Positions 1,256 through 32,157 of a stretch of 40,035 nt of DNA are shown one piece after another. The position numbers and the translations under genes were made by a program. Every line of letters begins with the position of its first letter. Within the stretch, counting starts at the first letter, position 1. The notes under the pieces are model-generated. The model saw nothing but the letters and a program-made list of their open reading frames with translations, was not told the DNA's origin and ran no database searches. The stretch is from a virus: the UHGV virus genome UHGV-0090445; one strand, 5' to 3'.

Positions 1256-3238
1256 TTAAGCGCTTGCAATAAAATCCATTTCGAATAGCTGTATTCTATC
1301 GTCTGTTATGTAGGCCTCGAAATATGTTCCATCATATGATGATAACTTAACTCCATTTATATGACCAGCATATGTATCATTGTGCATAATAATTAACTGC
1401 CCGTCACCCTTTCCTACATATTTGCACGTCCATGTCCCATTTGTTTTTGTGCTGTTAAGTAATGTAGTCGTTGACTGCACTCCATCCTTACATATTATAC
1501 CTTTTGCTTCATTTCCTATATACCTTATTCCAAAGTAATTTCCTGATTCCACGGAGCCACAAACTATAAAACCATTTAGTGAATTAACTCCAGATGTAAT
1601 TCCATAAGCAACAGCAAAACCAAGATAGTTAAATGTTTCATATTTTAATACAAGCCGTCGCTCTCTTTTATATCTTACAAGTGCCGTACCGCCAACAGTC
1701 CCCGCTCTTACAACTAATCCACCTTCTGCATAATATTCCAACCCTGAACCTGAGCCGGTTACTTTATTGGTAAATTTATCATAGTCTTGAAATTGAGTAT
1801 GGTGCCTTGTTGTCGCAAGCGTAAATGAAGATGTTACTCCATTAATTGATTTTGTAGCTGTTTCAGTTATAAGCCCTACCTGTACTCCATCAACCCTACT
1901 TTGCGCAACTTTACCAATGCACATACCAAAATCATTACCGATAATGATACCGCCTATCGAAACAGCAACCCAACTTTTTAGTGTGCCAGACATTGGCTTT
2001 AGCGCCTGTCCTATTCTTGTTGAGTTTGAGCTTAATACTCCTCCATGCTTTACAACCATCCCTTTATCATTAATTTCGTTACCGAAATCGCATGATTCAA
2101 CTGATATTGTACTATTATATGCCTCAATACACTTATCAACTCCTACCCCATTGAATGAACAATCATTAACAGCGCCAGATGTGCATCCATAAAATTCAAC
2201 TGAAGCATTTTCATCACTGTGTGTTCTATTTGTAAAGTTTAAAGCGTGCAACTCTGGGCTGTATGGTGTGCCTCCGCATGAAAATACCTGGGCTGACCTA
2301 ACATTAACTGTTGTTCTGTCGGTAGTTCTACTTACTATAACAATGTTTGCTTGTTGCGATGCGCCAGGTGGGAATAGAGGTGTGCACCCCCTCTTGCTTC
2401 TGATTACTATGTCTTCATCATAAGTTCCTGGTGCAATTGAGATAATAATTCTCTGCCAATAATTATTTGGGATATCGTCAATTGCTTCCTGAATGGTCCG
2501 GTAATCTTCCGGAACCATGAGTGTTACAGGCATCGTGTAAATACCCGCCACTGTTGACGAGTCAACGCCAAATGGATGGATGTAACCGCGATACGGATCA
2601 TTACCCCCGATAGTATTGATAAATCCTTCAATGCGTACTTTTGCTGAGTTAGTGTACAGATAACCACATTCACCAATATCTACGCGGAACTTCGCCGGGA
2701 TAGTCAGATCTTCTGTAAATTCCACTGGAACGTTGACAAAAACTCGTCCGTTACCAGAGGCGATGGCGCGTTTGAAAGCCTGCGTGTAGTCTGGAGCTGC
2801 TGGGTCTCCTGGCTCAACAAATGCGCGTAGGTCATAAAATCTTTCCTGCTGACCACCAGGGATTAAAAAACCTTTATCTCCTTCAAGCTCCTGCCTTAAC
2901 TGATCAGGGTCATACTTCAATACGTTTGGATAGTAAAATTGCTGTACGCCATATGCATCATATACAGCCATAGAATGGCCTTGCACAGTTACGAATTTGG
3001 CAATCTGTCCGTTATATACAGGATAACCAGCAGCGTTAATGATTATTGGTTGCGAAACAGGAACATGAGAACCATCTTCGTTTTCTACATAAACCTGAAT
3101 CTGGTTTTCAGGATTTACCGGGTCAGTGTCAATTTTACCGATATAAATTTTGCCATTGGCTACCGCTTTAAAAGAACGAGCCATAGTGAAGAGTTGCGAA
3201 GGCATCGATACGATCACATTGGCTGTAATGTCTGTCAT
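1256..3238 (-). CDS. Tailspike protein, P22 gp9 family (conserved N-terminal head-binding domain, divergent receptor-binding body)
   Basis: 660 aa; N-terminus [11 protein letters not shown]...[35 protein letters not shown]...[12 protein letters not shown] closely matches the remembered P22 tailspike head-binding domain; remainder is not P22-like. Confidence 0.9.
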
Positions 3239-3370: not shown

Positions 3371-3628
3371 ATGATGTACAGCAAATACGATGAGGCGCAG
3401 TTCCACTTGAGGCTTACGCACGAGTTGCACGCTAAGATTAAGCAACGTGCAAAAATGAATAACAGGTCTATCAATTCCGAAATTGTGGCTACGATGGAAG
3501 AATCACTCTCCAAACCATCACCTGTAAGCGGGTATCGTGATGAAGAAGAGAGGCTGGCCTCATTAATCTCGGAACGAGTAAAAGAAGTTGTGGCTGATAT
3601 CCTTAGAAAAGAAAAAACCCGCGATTAA
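3371..3628 (+). CDS. Mnt-like ribbon-helix-helix repressor (second copy)
   Basis: Internal start of ORF 2939..3628 at ATG 3371 with SD GGTGAGG upstream; product ...NNRSINSEIVATMEESLSKPSPVSGYRDEEERLA... resembles P22 Mnt (NGRSMNSE...SKPSPVTGYRNDAERLA). The upstream part of the track ORF is antisense to the tailspike and rejected. Confidence 0.75.
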   Translation: MMYSKYDEAQFHLRLTHELHAKIKQRAKMNNRSINSEIVATMEESLSKPSPVSGYRDEEERLASLISERVKEVVADILRKEKTRD

Positions 3629-3636
3629 GCGGGTTT
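3605..3636 (-). terminator. Intrinsic terminator for the ant2-orf73 transcript (between convergent genes)
   Basis: Hairpin AAACCCGC-GATTAA-GCGGGTTT at 3615..3636; on the minus strand it is followed by a T-rich run (complement of 3604..3614). Confidence 0.45.
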
Positions 3637-3642
3637 AGTTGG

Positions 3643-3864
3643 TTAGTTATCAAAAAGTCCGTACGTTTCTTCTTCTTTAGGTGTAAGGGGAAGAATCTCT
3701 ACTCTATCTATAGATACCTTTTCAATGTACCCATGAGGTCTACTTAAAATTAAAGCTCTCTCATGCCACAGAACTCCAAGAATGTGATACCTTCCAGCAT
3801 CGCCTTTTACCCTGGCTCTTCCTTTGATTCTTGGCGGCATAATGCCATATTTTTTCTTTGCCAT
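3643..3864 (-). CDS. Hypothetical protein (73 aa), translationally coupled to upstream antirepressor gene
   Basis: ORF from track; its start overlaps the stop of the 3864..4643 ORF (ATGA); basic N-terminus MAKKKYG; no family recognised. Confidence 0.4.
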   Translation of the reverse strand: MAKKKYGIMPPRIKGRARVKGDAGRYHILGVLWHERALILSRPHGYIEKVSIDRVEILPLTPKEEETYGLFDN

Positions 3865-4592
3865 TATGCAACATTACTCCCATGAATCAGGTGTTGTAGT
3901 GCTTTAACACCCTCCGCATTGTAGCGGAATGCTTCCACCTGTTTGCTTGAATGCGCAGATTTATCCAAGAAGAACTTCCCGTACTGCTCAGTTTTGAGGT
4001 TGTTTGCGTTAGCAATGCGACCAATCTTGTTGGCCGTTACTCCAAGCTGCTCTGCAACCTCCCCTGCTGAGTAGTAATGCTCTTCTATTGCCGGAAGAGG
4101 TATTGCATTAAAACCAACGAGCGGGTTGATTATACTTGCTGCCGCTGTCTGCTTTGCCTCCGGCGCAAGATTTGGCATCAGATCGAACAGATTGGTAACA
4201 GCTTCAACCGTCATTTTCAATGTTCGCGCTTGACGATACTCAACAAGTCCACTCGCTGATTTACCGCTTTTAATGTGCGCTTCTTGCATACTTTCAAGTT
4301 GGTCTACCAGTGAGCGGCGAACGGCTTTTGACTCGCGAGCGGCAACTCGCAATGCTTGCTTGATTGACATCTCAATGATAACCATCGAAGTTTTGTTCGC
4401 TTTTTGCACTACACTTTTTGTGTAGTGCTCTCCATCCAATTCATCTTCAATTTTCTCGATGAATTTGTTATTACGAACCTCCGGCTCACCGCACTGTCTA
4501 CGAGCCTGATTTACCATCTCAAGCAGGCGCTGGCTGTCAATGGTTTTATCCGTGACAACGGATCCGATGTTTGCTACATTCTTAAAAGTCAT
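3864..4592 (-). CDS. Antirepressor-like protein (KilAC/ANT-like C-terminal region)
   Basis: Track ORF 3864..4643; likely start is ATG at 4592 (MTFKNVANIG...) with SD AAGGAA 6 nt upstream; C-terminal motif EVAEQLGVTANKIGRIANANNL resembles the KilAC/ANT region of the nin-region Rha protein in this window. Confidence 0.6.
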   Translation of the reverse strand: MTFKNVANIGSVVTDKTIDSQRLLEMVNQARRQCGEPEVRNNKFIEKIEDELDGEHYTKSVVQKANKTSMVIIEMSIKQALRVAARESKAVRRSLVDQLESMQEAHIKSGKSASGLVEYRQARTLKMTVEAVTNLFDLMPNLAPEAKQTAAASIINPLVGFNAIPLPAIEEHYYSAGEVAEQLGVTANKIGRIANANNLKTEQYGKFFLDKSAHSSKQVEAFRYNAEGVKALQHLIHGSNVA

Positions 4593-4661
4593 TAGGCATT
4601 CCTTATGTGGTAGTAAGGGTGTGACATAGGCCGCCAGCAGCACACTGGCGGTTTTCTTTTT
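4587..4661 (+). ncRNA. Candidate sar-like antisense RNA covering the ant2 translation start
   Basis: Plus-strand promoter-like -35 GTGACA (4552..4557), 17-nt spacer, -10 TACATT (4575..4580); strong intrinsic terminator CCGCCAG-cagcaca-CTGGCGG + TTTTCTTTTT at 4631..4661. No plus-strand gene precedes it; transcript would be antisense to the ant2 SD and start codon. Confidence 0.35.
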
Positions 4662-4680
4662 GCGCCGTCCGGCGCACCAA

Positions 4681-5403
4681 TCAATGAATCCATTCCTCGC
4701 CGCGAAGTTTTGCCAGCATTGGCTGAGCGTTCTTTACGACAAAATTGTTGGTATCAAGATTCTTCATTTCACGAAGAAGTGATTTCTTGGTTTCTTCTGA
4801 CATGTAGCGAGTCTCATATGCAATATCGTAAATCCTTCCTGAAAGCTCAGAACCAATTTGCTTCATTCCTGGGTAGATGTGTTTGCACATTTGTTGACTC
4901 TTCTCCATCCACAATTGTAAGTAGCAGAGATTAACCAGTTCTTCGTCAGTAAACTGTTTTGCAATCGGTGAGCATTCTGCCTGCCGATCCAAAATATCCA
5001 GCACCCAGCGGCGGAACTCTTTGGCCTTGGGCGTAGAAGCAAACATCGCCACCAAGTGAGCGCCTCGGAGCGAGTAAACTCTGACCGATTTGTTACGTAA
5101 GCTATTGTTTATTCCGTTGACCTTCATATTGAGGGTCAATGACATTGAGTCGGAAAATTCGTCAGCATTACGGGCATAAATTTGGCTGATGGCATCAGTT
5201 TTTTTATAGCCGAGAGCCTTAGCTAGTTCGGCGGAGGTGAACCAGATAGACCCGCCCTCTGTTACAGGGTTAAAAGTGAATCCTTGGAAGTTATAATCTG
5301 ATTTTGCTACAATATTCATGTTAGTTTCCTTGGGTACGGTTACTGACATAGAGGCCCGGTTTGTGTTCGCGCACTTCCGGGCTTCACTATTTTTACTGGG
5401 CAT
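4681..5403 (-). CDS. ant: Antirepressor with Bro-N domain
   Basis: Bro-N-like region FTFNPVTEGGSIWFTSAELAKALGYKK...VRVYSLRGAHLVAMFASTPKAKEFRRWVLDIL; start overlaps the Arc stop (coupling); position matches P22 immI arc-ant. Confidence 0.8.
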   Translation of the reverse strand: MPSKNSEARKCANTNRASMSVTVPKETNMNIVAKSDYNFQGFTFNPVTEGGSIWFTSAELAKALGYKKTDAISQIYARNADEFSDSMSLTLNMKVNGINNSLRNKSVRVYSLRGAHLVAMFASTPKAKEFRRWVLDILDRQAECSPIAKQFTDEELVNLCYLQLWMEKSQQMCKHIYPGMKQIGSELSGRIYDIAYETRYMSEETKKSLLREMKNLDTNNFVVKNAQPMLAKLRGEEWIH

Positions 5404-5584
5404 TAGCTCTTTCCTCTCTCAGGCTTTTAGCCAGTCGCTGCACAATCGCAGAGTTGATAGAAATTCCATCCATTTCAGCTACGCGTCTGATCTCCTCCTT
5501 CATTCGCGCTGGCAAACGAAGCTGGAAACTCTGACTTTTACGACCACTGTAAAGAACATCGCTCATCATCAATATCTCCGTCAT
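5393..5584 (-). CDS. arc: Arc-like ribbon-helix-helix repressor
   Basis: 63 aa; FQLRLPARMKEEIRRVAEMDGISINSAIVQRL resembles P22 Arc (FNLRWPREVLDLVRKVAEENGRSVNSEIYQRV). Confidence 0.8.
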   Translation of the reverse strand: MTEILMMSDVLYSGRKSQSFQLRLPARMKEEIRRVAEMDGISINSAIVQRLAKSLREERANAQ

Positions 5585-5585
5585 A

Positions 5586-5640
5586 ATGACATCACCGTGA
5601 TGTCATGACACCATTATGATGCCATTGCTCATAATGTCAA
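5586..5640. promoter_or_regulatory. immI control region: perfect 10-1-10 palindromic operator plus divergent Pant-like and Pmnt-like promoters
   Basis: ATGACATCAC-C-GTGATGTCAT at 5586..5606 immediately upstream of arc; minus-strand promoter -35 TTGACA (complement of 5635..5640), 17-nt spacer, -10 ATAATG (complement of 5612..5617); plus-strand -10 CATAAT near 5630..5635. Confidence 0.5.
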
Positions 5641-5689: not shown

Positions 5690-5941
5690 ATGTCAGAAAA
5701 AGACGAATCAAATTTCATAGAAAGATTTACGGTTAGAATGCCTGACGGCATGCGTAGTGCTATTGCGGAAAGGGCTAAACGAAACGGTCGATCTATGAAC
5801 TCAGAGATAGTTCAAATTCTTGAGGATGCGTTATCATCTGACGTCTCATCAGTAGACAAATCATTAGATCTTAAACAAATAAAATCTTTACTTGATAAAA
5901 TTTCCAACGAGTTACTGGATAGAATCCCAAAAGACACATAA
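5690..5941 (+). CDS. mnt: Mnt/Arc-family ribbon-helix-helix repressor, divergent from arc-ant
   Basis: Internal start at ATG 5690 of ORF 5642..5941; FTVRMPDGMRSAIAERAKRNGRSMNSEIVQILEDAL is an RHH motif; placement and orientation match P22 mnt. Confidence 0.7.
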   Translation: MSEKDESNFIERFTVRMPDGMRSAIAERAKRNGRSMNSEIVQILEDALSSDVSSVDKSLDLKQIKSLLDKISNELLDRIPKDT

Positions 5942-5991
5942 CAAAACATTATCATCCGGTGTTCTGCTCAAAACTAAGGAGTGGCTACTCA

Positions 5992-6630
5992 ATGAAAAAA
6001 ATAGATATATATAGCGATACATCAGCCTATGTCATAGGCTCATTGGGTTTTTTAATTTTTTTTGTTTGGCAGTACCAGTCACTATCTCCAGGATGGCGAT
6101 TTTTTGGGATGTCTTTGATATCACTTGGTGCAGGAATAGCAACGCAGGTGTTGATGTATCTCTTTAATGGATGGCTCTCAAAAAGAGTTGAGAAAAAAAG
6201 AGCTACTTCAATATGTAGAAGCCTAGCTATTCCAGAAGACTCTACAGATCAGGATGATATTGCAAAATGTTGGCGGTATATGATTGCAAGATACTCAAAT
6301 GAGTTACTGGCAAACAGACTGTCCGACTTAATCGGGGTCGTAGTTACCTCTGTTGGAACAATCATCAGTATAGGGATATCAATTTGGTATGTCGGGATGA
6401 TTGTCTATTTTGTTTGGAATAGAGACTTCAATGAACCTTCCCTTCTTTTTATACCTTTATTTTTCAGGGTATTAGCATTCATATGTGAGTTATTGCTCTC
6501 TTTTTTCTGCAATGTTTTGTTCAACAGATACCCAGGTGAAGCAAGAAAGTTTAATAAAAACTATGATGAGTTAAGGAGAACAGATCCTTTTCTATCAAGT
6601 AAAGAGTTCCGCGATTCCATTCGCAATTAA
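5992..6630 (+). CDS. AT-rich predicted 4-TM inner-membrane protein at the SieA position (candidate superinfection exclusion protein)
   Basis: Start ATG 5992 with SD AAGGAG (5977..5982); four hydrophobic segments; AT-rich by eye; sits between mnt and the gp16 homolog as sieA does in P22. Homology to SieA not verifiable here. Confidence 0.65.
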   Translation: MKKIDIYSDTSAYVIGSLGFLIFFVWQYQSLSPGWRFFGMSLISLGAGIATQVLMYLFNGWLSKRVEKKRATSICRSLAIPEDSTDQDDIAKCWRYMIARYSNELLANRLSDLIGVVVTSVGTIISIGISIWYVGMIVYFVWNRDFNEPSLLFIPLFFRVLAFICELLLSFFCNVLFNRYPGEARKFNKNYDELRRTDPFLSSKEFRDSIRN

Positions 6631-6651: not shown

Positions 6652-8517
6652 TTAGCGATCAGTTGCATCATTGGCAAGTATTGGTCTGATGGCATTTGCG
6701 GCGTTATTCAGCGCTCTTTCATAAGCTGGCGTTCCAGCTTTAGTGTTTGCCAGACGTAAGAGCGCATTCCTAGCCATAGGGCTTTCATAAACCCTCGACA
6801 TAAGGCCAATCCCTGTTTCCCCAGCCAATAGCGCGCCTCCGGTTTTTAGGTTACCAATAACCCTTACCAAAGGCGCGAGTGTCATGCCAGTCTTCGTCAC
6901 AACATTAGCCTCAGATGCTCTTTTGGTAGCATCGAGAATAGATAACATCCCCTCTATCTCTTTTCCGTTCTTCCCACCAAATACAGTTTTAAACACCTGA
7001 CCATTTGCTTGTTTTTGCAGCTTGCCAAGCTCGGTCATCATTTTCTGAGGGCTGTCACCTACCTTGTCAGCTATTTTGCTGATATATGCCGCCCTTAGCA
7101 TGTCTTTACCTTTTTGATCGAGTTTCCCGTACAATCGAGCTATATCTGACCCATATTGTCCATACACAATGGTATTTACAGCCTCGGGAGTTAAATCTCC
7201 TTTGTTTAGAACGTTTTTAAGGCGCGTTTGAGTTGCATGTGTTGCCATTTTTGCATAATCAGCTTTTCCCGCCCTCCATGCTGAAGCATCTTTTGGGCTA
7301 AGTCCTTTCGCTATAGATTTACTAAGGCTATTGGTTAGCGAGTTGTAGACCCTGTCGACCATTGTTTGCGACATTGATGGCAGAACTGTACGATCGCCTT
7401 TTACGTCAATGCGGAACTGAGTTCTCAGCTTATCAAGTAACTCAAAGGCATCATCTCCATTTGTTATCTCCTGAATGGCATTCTTATAATCATTAAGCGC
7501 AGAAATGGTCTGGGTGTCAGAAACACCTTTAAGTTTCCCAAGTTCGTTTACTGCTCCGTCGATAGCTCTTATGGCGCCACTTGTATCAACTGGCTTTCCA
7601 ACCATTCTTCCTGACAGGTTGTTTAGTTTTGACTTGGCTAACGATTTTTCCCTTGCAACGCCTGACTTTAGACTATCAACGACTACAGATGGATCGTAGT
7701 CGCCGTATTTTTCGGTGAAGCGATTAACAAGCTTGGTTCTAGCATCCTGCTGTGCGGCTCTCATTGGTCCAGTCCCAGCTATGACTCCTTCTGAGTAACC
7801 CTGCAGTTGATTGCCAAGTTTTGTTTTTGGAGGAACTACATCCGATGTCATAACTGGTACATCTGCCGCAGCGGCACGCTTGAGCAATTGCTGATCTGCT
7901 GGTGATATTTCGCCACGAACAGCAGTAATTCCACGCCCTATTCCCTTTGCTGCTGCGGAAAGAACCCCCTGAGCGGCAAGGTTAACTCCGGCATTTTTAG
8001 CTGCATTTTGTGCGAAATCGCCTTTCTGATTTGCGGCTTCTGCCAGTGATCCAATAGCCATGCTTCCTGCCGTTCCAACTCCTGGAACTAAATACCCGCC
8101 AATTGTTTCTCCAGCTTGAGCGTAGGGGTCTGTCGGTCGATCGACTGGACGATAGACATCATCCAATACTTTTGGCCCACCAAGCCCCTGGCTGATTGCA
8201 TTAATCAGACTTGCGCCACCCTGCAATACGTCAAATGGTATGTTTACCAGACCACGACCAGCCTGCTCTGCAATTTGCCCTGCACTTTGACCACCAGTGA
8301 GCCAATCGCCAGCTTGTTGCATCAATGATGGTTCTTCTTTCTGCTGCTGAGTCGGAGGGTATGCTGCATAAAACTGATCTCTTGCTTCAGCCCATTTGTC
8401 ACCAGCCTTAGGAGCAACAACCTCATCAAAATATTGCGCTTGAGCCTGTGCTTTCTGTTCTTCAGTTAACGCCTGATACTGTGGAGAGGCGATAACATCT
8501 TTCCATGCTTTAGCCAT
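6652..8517 (-). CDS. Ejection (DNA-transfer) protein, P22 gp16-like
   Basis: 621 aa (P22 gp16 about 609 aa); gene order gp7-gp20-gp16 ahead of immI/tailspike; Ala/Gly-rich. Confidence 0.8.
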   Translation of the reverse strand: MAKAWKDVIASPQYQALTEEQKAQAQAQYFDEVVAPKAGDKWAEARDQFYAAYPPTQQQKEEPSLMQQAGDWLTGGQSAGQIAEQAGRGLVNIPFDVLQGGASLINAISQGLGGPKVLDDVYRPVDRPTDPYAQAGETIGGYLVPGVGTAGSMAIGSLAEAANQKGDFAQNAAKNAGVNLAAQGVLSAAAKGIGRGITAVRGEISPADQQLLKRAAAADVPVMTSDVVPPKTKLGNQLQGYSEGVIAGTGPMRAAQQDARTKLVNRFTEKYGDYDPSVVVDSLKSGVAREKSLAKSKLNNLSGRMVGKPVDTSGAIRAIDGAVNELGKLKGVSDTQTISALNDYKNAIQEITNGDDAFELLDKLRTQFRIDVKGDRTVLPSMSQTMVDRVYNSLTNSLSKSIAKGLSPKDASAWRAGKADYAKMATHATQTRLKNVLNKGDLTPEAVNTIVYGQYGSDIARLYGKLDQKGKDMLRAAYISKIADKVGDSPQKMMTELGKLQKQANGQVFKTVFGGKNGKEIEGMLSILDATKRASEANVVTKTGMTLAPLVRVIGNLKTGGALLAGETGIGLMSRVYESPMARNALLRLANTKAGTPAYERALNNAANAIRPILANDATDR

Positions 8518-14024: not shown

Positions 14025-15278
14025 TTACTGCCCGGCAATAACGATGCCCGTATATTCAGGAACAAGTACAGAGCAACCGTACAGAGTGGTGAAACGAGCA
14101 GTGGTTACGCCTTTGATGTGGTCGAAGGCGTAAGACATGATCAGCGTAGCGCCCTGCTCGGTGGTTGCTGTCATTACCTGTGGACCCTGACCAGTCGGGA
14201 ACGCCAGTTTGCCGTACATCAGTTCAACAGAACCATCAGCCCAGAACAGGTTAGCCGGTGCGGCATTTTTGTTGAGAATGGTGATTGCTGCGCTACTTGC
14301 CGCATTAGCATCAACGTTTGCATATGGACGGCTGGCGACATCCGCGTTGTCAGGCGGCAGAATTTTCGGGGAGATAGTTACTGTCGTTCCGCTTACTGCC
14401 AGAACGCGGAATACCTGCGGCTGCCCGGTGGTATCTTTGGTGATCTGGTGTACAGAATTCACCCCTGCAATGGTAAACGCATCGCCAACCTGCAAACCTT
14501 CAGTAGATACCGTAATGGTCCCCTGTCGGTTATCAACTGGCATATCGTTAGCATCTTTCGCTTCAACTTTGTGCGCAGGTGCTGCTGCCAGCGTAATGGA
14601 AGTTGCTGTCCCTTTCGGAACACGACCAGAAATATCAGTCTTGTAGCTATCAAAGGAAGCAACCGGAGGGATCTGCGCTTTTTCGTATGCTGTCAGGGTT
14701 GCACCCTGAGCGTAGGCACGGTGACCAAGCTCGCCAGCAAGGTCTTTGTAGTTGAAGGGGTTCCAGAAAGAGCGACGGTTGATACCCTGCGGTACACCAA
14801 TCGCCGTCATGGTGGCATCAATACCTGCCGCACAGTTCCACAAATCACGGCCCTGTGAACCAGTGGTTGAGTCAGCCATCGTGATCACGTTAGTAGCACG
14901 CTGCGTAACCATGGAAATCAGGTCAGAGTCAATCTGTGCAGCAAGGCGCATACCTGCGGCGCGACCAGCTTCAGTTTTATGTTCCGGGTCACGCATTTCA
15001 CGCGCATCCAGAGTGTACAGAATGTTTTTCGGTTCCTTGAACACAGAAGGAACAAGGCGCTGAACCAGTGCTGTTGGCGTTTTGCCGCTGAGGTCTAGGC
15101 CTTCCTCAATGTTCATGTGGTAATGCTGCGGACGATACAGAACATCACCTGCTCGCTGCATTGCTGTATCACCGGGACGGAATTTTTTAGCGTTACGGGA
15201 AACTACGCAGGCGGCCTCAAAGCCTTCAACGTAGTTTTCGAACATGATTTCAAGGTCTTTTGCTAATTGGTTAGCCAT
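14025..15278 (-). CDS. Major capsid (coat) protein, P22 gp5-like
   Basis: 417 aa (P22 coat 430 aa); between scaffold and gp4 homologs; followed by hairpin. Confidence 0.85.
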   Translation of the reverse strand: MANQLAKDLEIMFENYVEGFEAACVVSRNAKKFRPGDTAMQRAGDVLYRPQHYHMNIEEGLDLSGKTPTALVQRLVPSVFKEPKNILYTLDAREMRDPEHKTEAGRAAGMRLAAQIDSDLISMVTQRATNVITMADSTTGSQGRDLWNCAAGIDATMTAIGVPQGINRRSFWNPFNYKDLAGELGHRAYAQGATLTAYEKAQIPPVASFDSYKTDISGRVPKGTATSITLAAAPAHKVEAKDANDMPVDNRQGTITVSTEGLQVGDAFTIAGVNSVHQITKDTTGQPQVFRVLAVSGTTVTISPKILPPDNADVASRPYANVDANAASSAAITILNKNAAPANLFWADGSVELMYGKLAFPTGQGPQVMTATTEQGATLIMSYAFDHIKGVTTARFTTLYGCSVLVPEYTGIVIAGQ

Positions 15279-31378: not shown

Positions 31379-32032
31379 ATGAAATGGTATGAACTGGCTA
31401 GATCCAGAATGAAAGAGCTCGGCATAACTCAAGAGAAGTTAGCTGAAGAGCTTGGTATGACGCAGGGTGGAATTGGTCACTGGTTGCGCGGATCTCGTCA
31501 TCCATCTCTTGACGAGATTGGTGTGGTGTTTAAATACCTTGGTATTGATAATGTCTCATTCAACCACGACGGTACATTTTCACCTGTTGGCGAATACTCA
31601 TCTGCCCCCGTTAAAAAACAATATGAGTACCCTGTTTTTTCTCATGTTCAGGCCGGGATGTTCTCGCCTGAGCTTAGAACCTTTACCAAAGGTGATGCGG
31701 AGAGATGGGTCAGCACAACCAAAAAAGCCAGTGATTGTGCGTTTTGGCTTGAAGTTGAAGGTAATTCCATGACCGCGCCAACAGGATCCAAGCCAAGCTT
31801 TCCTGACGGGATGTTAATTCTCGTTGACCCTGAGCAGGCTGTTGAGCCAGGTGATTTCTGCATAGCCAGACTTGGTGGTGACGAGTTTACCTTCAAGAAA
31901 CTGATCAGGGATAGCGGTCAGGTGTTCCTACAGCCACTAAACCCGCAATATCCAATGATTCCATGCAATGATAGCTGTTCCGTAGTAGGGAAAGTTATCG
32001 CCAGCCAGTGGCCTGAAGAGACATTTAGTTAA
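31379..32032 (+). CDS. cI: CI/C2-type prophage repressor (HTH plus LexA-like S24 autocleavage domain)
   Basis: ORF 31331..32032, probable start ATG 31379 ([35 protein letters not shown]...); C-terminal S24-like region with GNSMTAPTG and catalytic-type Lys. Confidence 0.85.
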
Positions 32033-32157
32033 CAGCCTCACCACTCTAAAACACACAACAATAACCCGACCTTAGCGTCGGGTTTTCTTTTTCCAAAATA
32101 TAAACCCATTAAATACAAAGCGTTATAAAAAACCAATTATATTTAGAACATTTTGTA

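Follow-up and report, generated by a model that had tools for sequence, protein, structure and literature searches.

A candidate sar-type antisense RNA gene over the ribosome-binding site of a second antirepressor-type cistron in a P22-like phage genome

Candidate antisense unit at the start of ant2

The virus genome UHGV-0090445, a stretch of 40,035 nucleotides (nt) that is referred to here as the window, probably carries a small sar-type RNA gene that lies in cis, antisense to the ribosome-binding site (RBS) of ant2, an antirepressor-like gene on the minus strand. The original prediction had placed a plus-strand promoter-like element (GTGACA, 17 nt, TACATT) and a strong plus-strand terminator on either side of about 75 nt antisense to the Shine-Dalgarno (SD) sequence and ATG of the minus-strand gene at 3864 to 4592. 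All of these elements were found in place, the promoter-like element at 4552 to 4580 and the terminator with a stem from 4628 and a T-run ending at 4661. The -35 hexamer GTGACA (4552 to 4557) agrees with TTGACA at five of six bases and lies over ant2 codons 12 to 14. The -10 region TGcTACATT (4572 to 4580) lies over codons 5 to 7, and its TG dinucleotide at 4572 to 4573, which the prediction had not included, turns the hexamer at 4575 to 4580 into an extended -10. The candidate has the form of a sigma-70 extended -10 promoter, TGnTAnnnT with a -35-like hexamer at a distance of 17 nt.

Placing the start 7 nt past the -10, as in P22 sar, gives a predicted 5' end at A4587 and, with a 3' end in the T-run, a plus-strand RNA of approximately 72 to 75 nt (4587 to 4661). 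It would span ant2 codon 2, the ATG (minus strand, 4590 to 4592), the SD sequence, and the remainder of the ant1-ant2 spacer. As read from the sequence, the anti-SD TTCCTT (4599 to 4604) is complementary in full to the ant2 SD AAGGAA (4604 to 4599), which is located 6 nt before the ATG. A homologous start codon is annotated in the Lederbergvirus (P22-like) Escherichia phage JEP4, which this region of the window matches at 95.6% across 1.8 kb. Folding of the predicted RNA yielded two hairpins with -25.1 kcal/mol (z = -2.8). The first, the predicted 5' stem-loop I (plus strand, 4588 to 4625), pairs GUC (4588 to 4590) with GAC (4623 to 4625) and CCUUAU (4601 to 4606) with GUAAGG (4613 to 4618), and holds the anti-SD. 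The second is the intrinsic terminator (plus strand, 4628 to 4661). Its stem AGGCCGCCAG/CTGGCGGTTT (4628 to 4637 and 4645 to 4654) has 10 pairs, 6 of them G-C, and is followed, after the loop CAGCACA (4638 to 4644), by the tail TTTTCTTTTT (4652 to 4661), giving the G+C-rich hairpin with an immediate U-run that defines this class.

In a promoter and terminator scan of the first 20 kb of the window, this was the second strongest terminator-like site. As the prediction had stated, no plus-strand gene needs it: the nearest upstream gene on that strand (3371 to 3628) is 1 kb away and has a hairpin of its own at 3615 to 3636. A bidirectional terminator serving ant1 was ruled out, since the minus strand has no T-run after the hairpin. 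Two coding explanations were likewise rejected. The only small open reading frame inside the RNA is AUG-UGG-UAG, and the plus-strand frame at 4404 to 4595, whose start precedes the promoter and which runs antisense to ant2 where the two overlap, was taken as spurious.

Promoter conservation within ant2 coding sequences

The promoter and terminator elements exist and are under selection on the plus strand. Two scans of IMG/VR with ant2-family proteins yielded 155 loci with 85 unique upstream regions, and 120 unique homologous coding sequences were aligned by codon and read on the antisense strand. Entropy was zero at T-15 and G-14 (codon 7, positions 3 and 2), T-12 and A-11 (codon 6, positions 3 and 2), and A-9 and T-7 (codon 5, positions 3 and 1). 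The same was true of five of the six -35 bases (codon 13 and the first two positions of codon 14); the sixth, at position 3 of codon 12, had 0.29 bits, and the complete hexamer was unchanged in 114 of the 120 sequences. Positions -13, -10, and -8 were variable, as was the 17-nt spacer throughout, with 1 to 1.7 bits.

Much of this invariance falls where the protein does not require it. Codon 6 encodes Val or Leu yet always reads NTA (GTA or TTA), and codon 7 encodes Ala, Pro, Thr, or Ser yet always reads NCA (GCA, CCA, ACA, or TCA). Codon 12 has T as its last base in nearly every sequence, although it encodes Val, Ile, Leu, Asn, or Ser. Val13 is GTC in every sequence (0 bits); Val27 is just as invariant a residue, yet all four of its codons occur (1.81 bits). 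Codons 5, 6, 7, and 13 show no variation at the third base; gene-wide, only approximately 4% of third positions are invariant, and third-position entropy averages 1.19 bits. Because the invariance persists at synonymous sites and at sites where the amino acid varies, coding constraint is unable to give this footprint, and selection for a sigma-70 extended -10 promoter is able to.

This footprint also bears on a different reading, in which the plus-strand terminator is an insulator and nothing else. It would stop stray antisense transcription, for example read-through from the gene at 3371 to 3628, and so shield ant1 and arc; the hexamers would be a by-product of the conserved N-terminal peptide, and no discrete RNA would be made. 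Residues Val13 and Thr14 are indeed invariant, the promoter match taken by itself is at chance, and some read-through is conceivable, as the plus side of the hairpin at 3615 to 3636 has a weak T-run. An insulator does not, however, account for invariance that falls exactly on the TG, T-12, A-11, T-7, and the -35 at synonymous or variable-residue sites next to a spacer that varies. Nor does it account for a promoter-terminator distance that does not change across 152 loci whose downstream surroundings differ widely, siphoviruses included, or for the repetition of the unit at ant1, which in P22 is a proven RNA gene. Mainly on the strength of the promoter footprint, we consider the insulator explanation very unlikely.

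Terminator, folding, and selected strand

All 152 loci with a homologous start codon had a hairpin and T-run, with the hairpin beginning 32 to 43 nt downstream of the predicted 5' end. In an alignment of 35 representative sequences, all cells of a 9-pair terminator stem were paired, and three pairs showed compensatory double changes. A single stem position occurred as five pair types (C-G, A-U, G·U, G-C, and U-A), and the stem variants included CCGCCAG/CTGGCGG, CCGGUAG/CUACCGG, CCGAUAG/CUAUCGG, CCAGCAG/CUGCUGG, and CCGUCAG/CUGACGG. None of the shuffled or slid controls came near the observed values of pairing and compensation, and RNAalifold, unaided, returned the identical helix. The terminator loops vary freely among relatives. 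Per-sequence folds predicted the two-hairpin shape across the 35 representatives; in nearly all of them, as in P22 sar, the first nucleotides of the RNA are predicted to pair with a UGAC-like motif and so form the 5' hairpin. The 30- to 35-nt anti-RBS segment falls into six sequence types that differ in length and cannot be aligned with one another.

Conservation of a hairpin can in principle reflect either strand. If the element acted in the ant mRNA, as a stabilizer or a processing site for RNase III or RNase E between ant1 and ant2, or by sequestering the SD sequence, the majority of stem variants would still pair, since they do so on the complementary strand too. The mRNA-sense leader has a predicted fold with a partly paired SD, and it folds at least slightly better than the antisense in 13 of 49 unique sequences (the antisense folds better in 35). 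Against this stand the G·U pairs of the stem, found at three positions in 11, 18, and 4 of the 35 sequences, which become C·A mismatches on the mRNA. On the mRNA, the T-run would read as a run of A on the 5' side of the hairpin, an arrangement with no known role, and the promoter footprint is left unexplained. G·U pairing works only in the antisense RNA, and only the plus strand has the T-run on the 3' side of the hairpin; the antisense is therefore the selected strand, and this asymmetry makes a sense-strand element extremely unlikely.

Specificity, range, and modularity of the unit

A joint search for TGnTAnnnT followed 35 to 70 nt later by a terminator was run on both strands of 136 unique related regions of 2.3 kb. 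The combination was very rare. On the antisense strand it was found at only two sites, the 5' end of ant2 (135) and the 5' end of ant1 (84); the sense strand had one occurrence. The sister unit over the ant1 RBS, a homolog of P22 sar, occupies 5284 to 5394 of the plus strand. Its promoter TTGGAA-18-TGcTACAAT (5284 to 5313) would produce an RNA from approximately 5320 to 5394, with a terminator stem at 5351 to 5385 and a T-run to 5394 that overlaps the arc stop codon.

A covariance model built from relatives matched the window at 4587 to 4670 with 70.9 bits and gave no match to P22 sar or to the ant1 unit. Its weak matches, at 32019 to 32101 of the window and in the P22 oop region, were rejected as merely similar terminators; the former (plus strand, 19 bits, E = 0.2) is a terminator that shares the tail (AACCCGAC...GTCGGGTT TTCTTTTT).

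The promoter-terminator unit is kept in the Klebsiella phages KP12 and KpnBHU6 and in Serratia and Morganella prophages, where the operon is placed between siphovirus tail genes. The Morganella unit reads GTGACA-17-TGaTAAAGT and has a new stem, GCCAACAG/CUGUUGGC (the second arm is also given as CTGTTGGC). Among 5,426 complete E. coli genomes the unit was found in 77, in which only the two proteins are annotated. Homologs of ant2 always follow another ant-type gene at a gap of 69 to 90 nt; in 133 loci this gene belonged to the Bro-N/P22_AR_C type and in 9 to the P22 Ant type. Similarity between loci ends right after the T-run.

Salmonella phage SPN3UB (NC_019545; 2915 to 3033 on the plus strand of the locus) has an identical ant1 3' end and terminator, followed by a different, ORF6N-type gene. 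This gene has an equivalent internal promoter, TCGACA-17-TGcTACATT, and the covariance model scored 47.9 bits. Homology of ant2 to the ORF6N protein was rejected, as BLASTP gave no match and the sole link is that both match phrog_1726. Because the ORF6N gene has an equivalent promoter and terminator, the antisense unit is common to different downstream genes. The N-terminal codons for 'NVA...VV' apparently move together with the unit.

Two groups of relatives depart from the common arrangement. In IMG/VR loci L072 to L075, an ant2 homolog with a different N-terminus and a GTG start (MVNNIANH...; gene start at approximately 2492) lies behind an unrelated gene of 184 amino acids, and the promoter-terminator unit is absent; with their different gene context, these loci form a natural contrast group. 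At L017 (2427 to 2453) and eight similar loci, in which ant2 is preceded by a gene of the P22 Ant type, the T-run is closely followed by an additional CTGGCGG arm. It could pair with the CCGCCAG arm, leaving the T-run in the loop, and may represent an alternative structure or a recombination scar.

Locus and operon layout

Judged by its genes, this part of the window is a P22-like immI region with arc, ant1, and ant2. The operon would be transcribed from a Pant-like promoter on the minus strand (TTGACA-16-CATAAT, 5613 to 5640, 11 of 12 matches), divergent from a plus-strand Mnt/Arc-like ribbon-helix-helix (RHH) gene (5693 to 5941) that holds the position of Mnt beside Pant. The first gene is arc (minus strand, 5393 to 5584), an Arc-like RHH repressor by its Pfam Arc match. 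It is followed on the same strand by ant1 (4681 to 5319; 212 amino acids), for which a domain search identified the antirepressor domains Bro-N and P22_AR_C, by ant2 (3864 to 4592; 242 amino acids), which matches phrog_1726 'anti-repressor' and no Pfam domain, and by orf73 (3643 to 3864; phrog_4977, function unknown). The start of orf73 coincides with the stop of ant2 (both at 3864), so that orf73 is probably translationally coupled to ant2 and, given this coupling, would come under the same antisense control.

The terminator that ends the arc-ant1-ant2-orf73 operon is located at 3615 to 3636 on the minus strand. A second Arc/Mnt-family RHH gene (plus strand, 3371 to 3628), separate from the Mnt-like one, is convergent with the operon and shares this hairpin with it. 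Between ant1 and ant2, minus-strand promoter-like and terminator-like sites were searched for and none was found, which indicates that ant2 is cotranscribed with ant1 as the third cistron of the arc operon. A palindrome, GCGCCGTCCGGCGC, is located at 4663 to 4676, directly after the candidate's T-run and 5 nt ahead of the ant1 stop codon. Many close relatives have a degenerate version (e.g., GCGCCGTCCTGTGCAC), and the palindrome is probably not functional.

The ant operon is a moron within the late operon, flanked by the genes for the gp16 ejection protein (6652 to 8517) and the tailspike (1256 to 3238), both on the minus strand, the strand of the late genes; in siphoviral relatives it is placed between tail genes. 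We therefore read ant2 as additionally exposed to late-operon read-through. Between gp16 and the immI promoters lies a plus-strand gene (5959 to 6630) that matches the SieA-like superinfection-exclusion family (phrog_7745, E = 2e-20) and has predicted weak matches of a membrane-protein-like kind. Its JEP4 homolog is labelled 'repressor protein C2', in appearance a misannotation.

The predicted structure of the ant2 protein combines a KilA-N/APSES-like N-terminal domain with a MerR-like winged-helix C-terminal domain; a sequence search of the PDB with ant2 gave no meaningful match. The ant2 family has approximately 2,100 database members across Enterobacterales, which are termed 'hypothetical' throughout and lack a Pfam domain.

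Proposed mechanism and its alternatives

RNA polymerase would start at the extended -10 promoter in ant2 codons 5 to 14, run against the operon, and stop at the intrinsic terminator in the ant1-ant2 spacer, releasing a two-hairpin RNA of approximately 72 to 75 nt. This RNA would be perfectly complementary to ant2 codon 2, the AUG, the SD sequence, and the upstream leader. Its pairing with the polycistronic arc-ant1-ant2 mRNA would block ribosome binding at ant2, and the duplex would probably be an RNase III substrate and be cleaved. Through such repression, ant2 is probably kept silent posttranscriptionally. As ant1 has a sar homolog, the operon would contain two antisense locks in tandem, and such RNA brakes on both ant cistrons would hold down antirepressor production, as has been described for sar in P22. 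That each ant cistron appears to have its own antisense RNA is, in our view, a noteworthy feature of the system. Since the ant operon sits inside the late operon, late read-through transcripts would escape Arc and Mnt, and this bypass provides a rationale for one RNA lock per cistron.

The RNA might be real and nevertheless act mainly in another way, either through transcriptional interference or polymerase collision that sets the ant1:ant2 ratio or in trans on superinfecting relatives, where it would contribute to immunity specificity. The Pant-like promoter (5640 to 5613) is convergent with the candidate promoter, and sar is listed as trans-acting in P22 (PMC12197685). An anti-RBS segment that occurs in six unalignable types between conserved flanks is also the pattern expected of specificity diversification, although mosaic recombination at those flanks would yield discrete types as well. 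The data do not separate these modes from a translational block. However, full complementarity to the SD sequence and AUG makes occlusion the simplest expectation, and on grounds of parsimony we regard another main mode as unlikely.

Several observations weigh against a sar-type RNA gene over ant2. Both the transcript and the repression of ant2 are predictions from sequence. Promoter-like hexamer pairs occurred at chance frequency, with 26 in 20 kb compared with 25.8 ± 5.2 in shuffled sequence, and for this reason the hexamer match was discarded as stand-alone evidence. Conservation of the -35 and -10 lies partly over the invariant residues Val13 and Thr14, so some of it is due to coding constraint, and the related sequences compared do not count as independent. 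In folding, the asymmetry between the strands is modest, at just 35 of 49 sequences. The terminator of SPN3UB lies upstream of a different gene and could count as a flank of ant1. The target of the candidate follows another ant gene and not arc, and its antirepressor label comes from phrog_1726 and context alone. Finally, the Rfam sar family RF00262 (gathering threshold of 43 bits; 97.8 bits for P22 as the positive control) had no match in the whole window at the gathering threshold or in 4300 to 4900 at E ≤ 10.

Antirepressors decide whether a prophage remains silent, and sar is the textbook case of RNA control over one of them. If the RNA over ant2 is real, the sar principle would be no peculiarity of P22 and would represent a modular, widespread device with one copy per antirepressor cistron, linked to the approximately 2,100 homologous target proteins in the database. 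Its hosts would include E. coli, Salmonella, Klebsiella, Serratia, Morganella, and Proteus, and it would occur in prophages of podoviral as well as siphoviral type. It would add an unannotated RNA family, as Rfam and PGAP miss the candidate and the ant1 sar homolog alike, and it would mark the 'hypothetical' ant2 protein family as a regulated factor in the lysis-lysogeny decision. The promoter can be killed by synonymous codon changes, which offers an unusually clean genetic test.

A more speculative extension, to which we assign a low probability, is that enterobacterial temperate phages share a portable 'locked antirepressor cassette'. Each ant-type cistron in a late operon would bring its own sar-type RNA, and the conserved promoter (TGnTAnnnT, within the N-terminal codons) and terminator (CCGCCAG/CTGGCGG-UUUUUCUUUUU) would double as recombination joints. 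The 30- to 35-nt anti-RBS segment, in at least six non-cross-reacting types, would act in trans from prophages and form an RNA-based layer of heteroimmunity like that of P1/P7 c4.

Comparison with known antisense RNAs

The oop RNA of lambda and P22 resembles the candidate in being a short (approximately 77 nt), constitutively terminated lambdoid cis-antisense RNA with its own promoter and intrinsic terminator. It differs in its locus, where it overlaps the 3' end of cII/c1, and in its mode of action, which is RNase III-dependent decay and not RBS occlusion.

In P1 and P7, the small RNA c4 blocks the ribosome-binding region of an antirepressor mRNA, and the RNA types define heteroimmunity (PMC12197685). 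The candidate is likewise a small RNA that would act against the ribosome-binding region of an antirepressor message, which for c4 is the icd-ant mRNA. c4 is encoded upstream on the transcript of its target, is processed from it, and pairs via short complementary patches. The candidate, in contrast, lies on the opposite strand with a promoter and terminator of its own and is not of the c4 type.

The closest parallel is P22 sar, which pairs with ant mRNA and thereby represses ant translation (PMC12197685, PMC13397905). Its targets are transcripts initiated at the late promoter PLATE (PMC12111858), and it is required despite the protein repressors, working on late-promoter transcripts (PMC12197685, PMC12111858, PMC13397905). 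In the P22 record NC_002371, sar is located at 15021 to 15090 and its terminator in the arc-ant spacer; the promoter (15097 to 15125) falls within the first codons of ant. The promoter Psar reads GTGTTA-17-TGcTATACT over codons 3 to 12, with the start 7 nt past the -10. The proposal that the geometry of the candidate mirrors that of sar held in every feature that can be tested by sequence, namely promoter site, -10, size, hairpins, terminator place, and SD complementarity. Like sar, the candidate would be a cis-antisense RNA of roughly 70 nt that covers the RBS of a gene in the immI operon, with a promoter in the first codons of the target that is convergent with Pant and has a TGnTAnnnT extended -10 and a 17-nt spacer. 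In either case the start, predicted for the candidate, is approximately 7 nt past the -10, and the terminator occupies the upstream intercistronic spacer of an operon that lies in the late operon. Each has two stem-loops, predicted for the candidate, and the 5' end pairs with a UGAC-type motif that directly precedes the terminator hairpin. The shape described for sar, an RNA of approximately 68 to 69 nt with two stem-loops of which the second is the terminator, is thus matched in prediction by the 72- to 75-nt candidate. The two share the promoter core TTTGCTACATT and the UGACAUAG motif, with bodies that cannot be aligned.

The differences lie in position, target, and standing. P22 sar belongs to the arc-ant junction and has its 3' end at the arc stop, whereas the candidate, also antisense to the RBS of an immI gene labelled as an antirepressor, lies in the ant1-ant2 spacer and targets the second ant-type cistron. 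The P22 target Ant is unrelated to the ant2 protein. Because its promoter is two codons deeper than that of P22, the candidate RNA would additionally cover the AUG and codon 2. P22 sar is experimentally proven; the candidate is so far a gene read from DNA alone.

The arc-ant1 junction of the window shows clear homology to P22, with TGcTACAAT (5306 to 5313), a start at approximately 5320, and the same UUACUGAC motif. The sar homolog there shares with the candidate the operon, strand, and design, a TGcTACAxT -10, and the UGACAUAG motif before the terminator. Unlike the candidate, it aligns to P22 sar, ends at the arc stop as in P22, and has a different terminator stem with a long loop (GAGGCCCGG.../...CCGGGCUUC); the target-specific parts of the two units cannot be aligned. 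RF00262 misses this ant1 homolog too, even at E ≤ 10, and since its homology is evident, the Rfam sar model is too narrow for many P22-like phages. For the other Rfam families, a scan of the whole window at gathering thresholds gave no match, and a permissive scan of 4300 to 4900 gave chance-level matches only (SgrS at 13 bits, from the terminator). A second sar and the exact sequence were both looked for in the literature, with no result. We infer that the candidate represents a new sequence family with sar-like translational repression. The sar design itself is known; what would be new is a sar-type family outside the Rfam sar family, at a different junction, that between ant1 and ant2.

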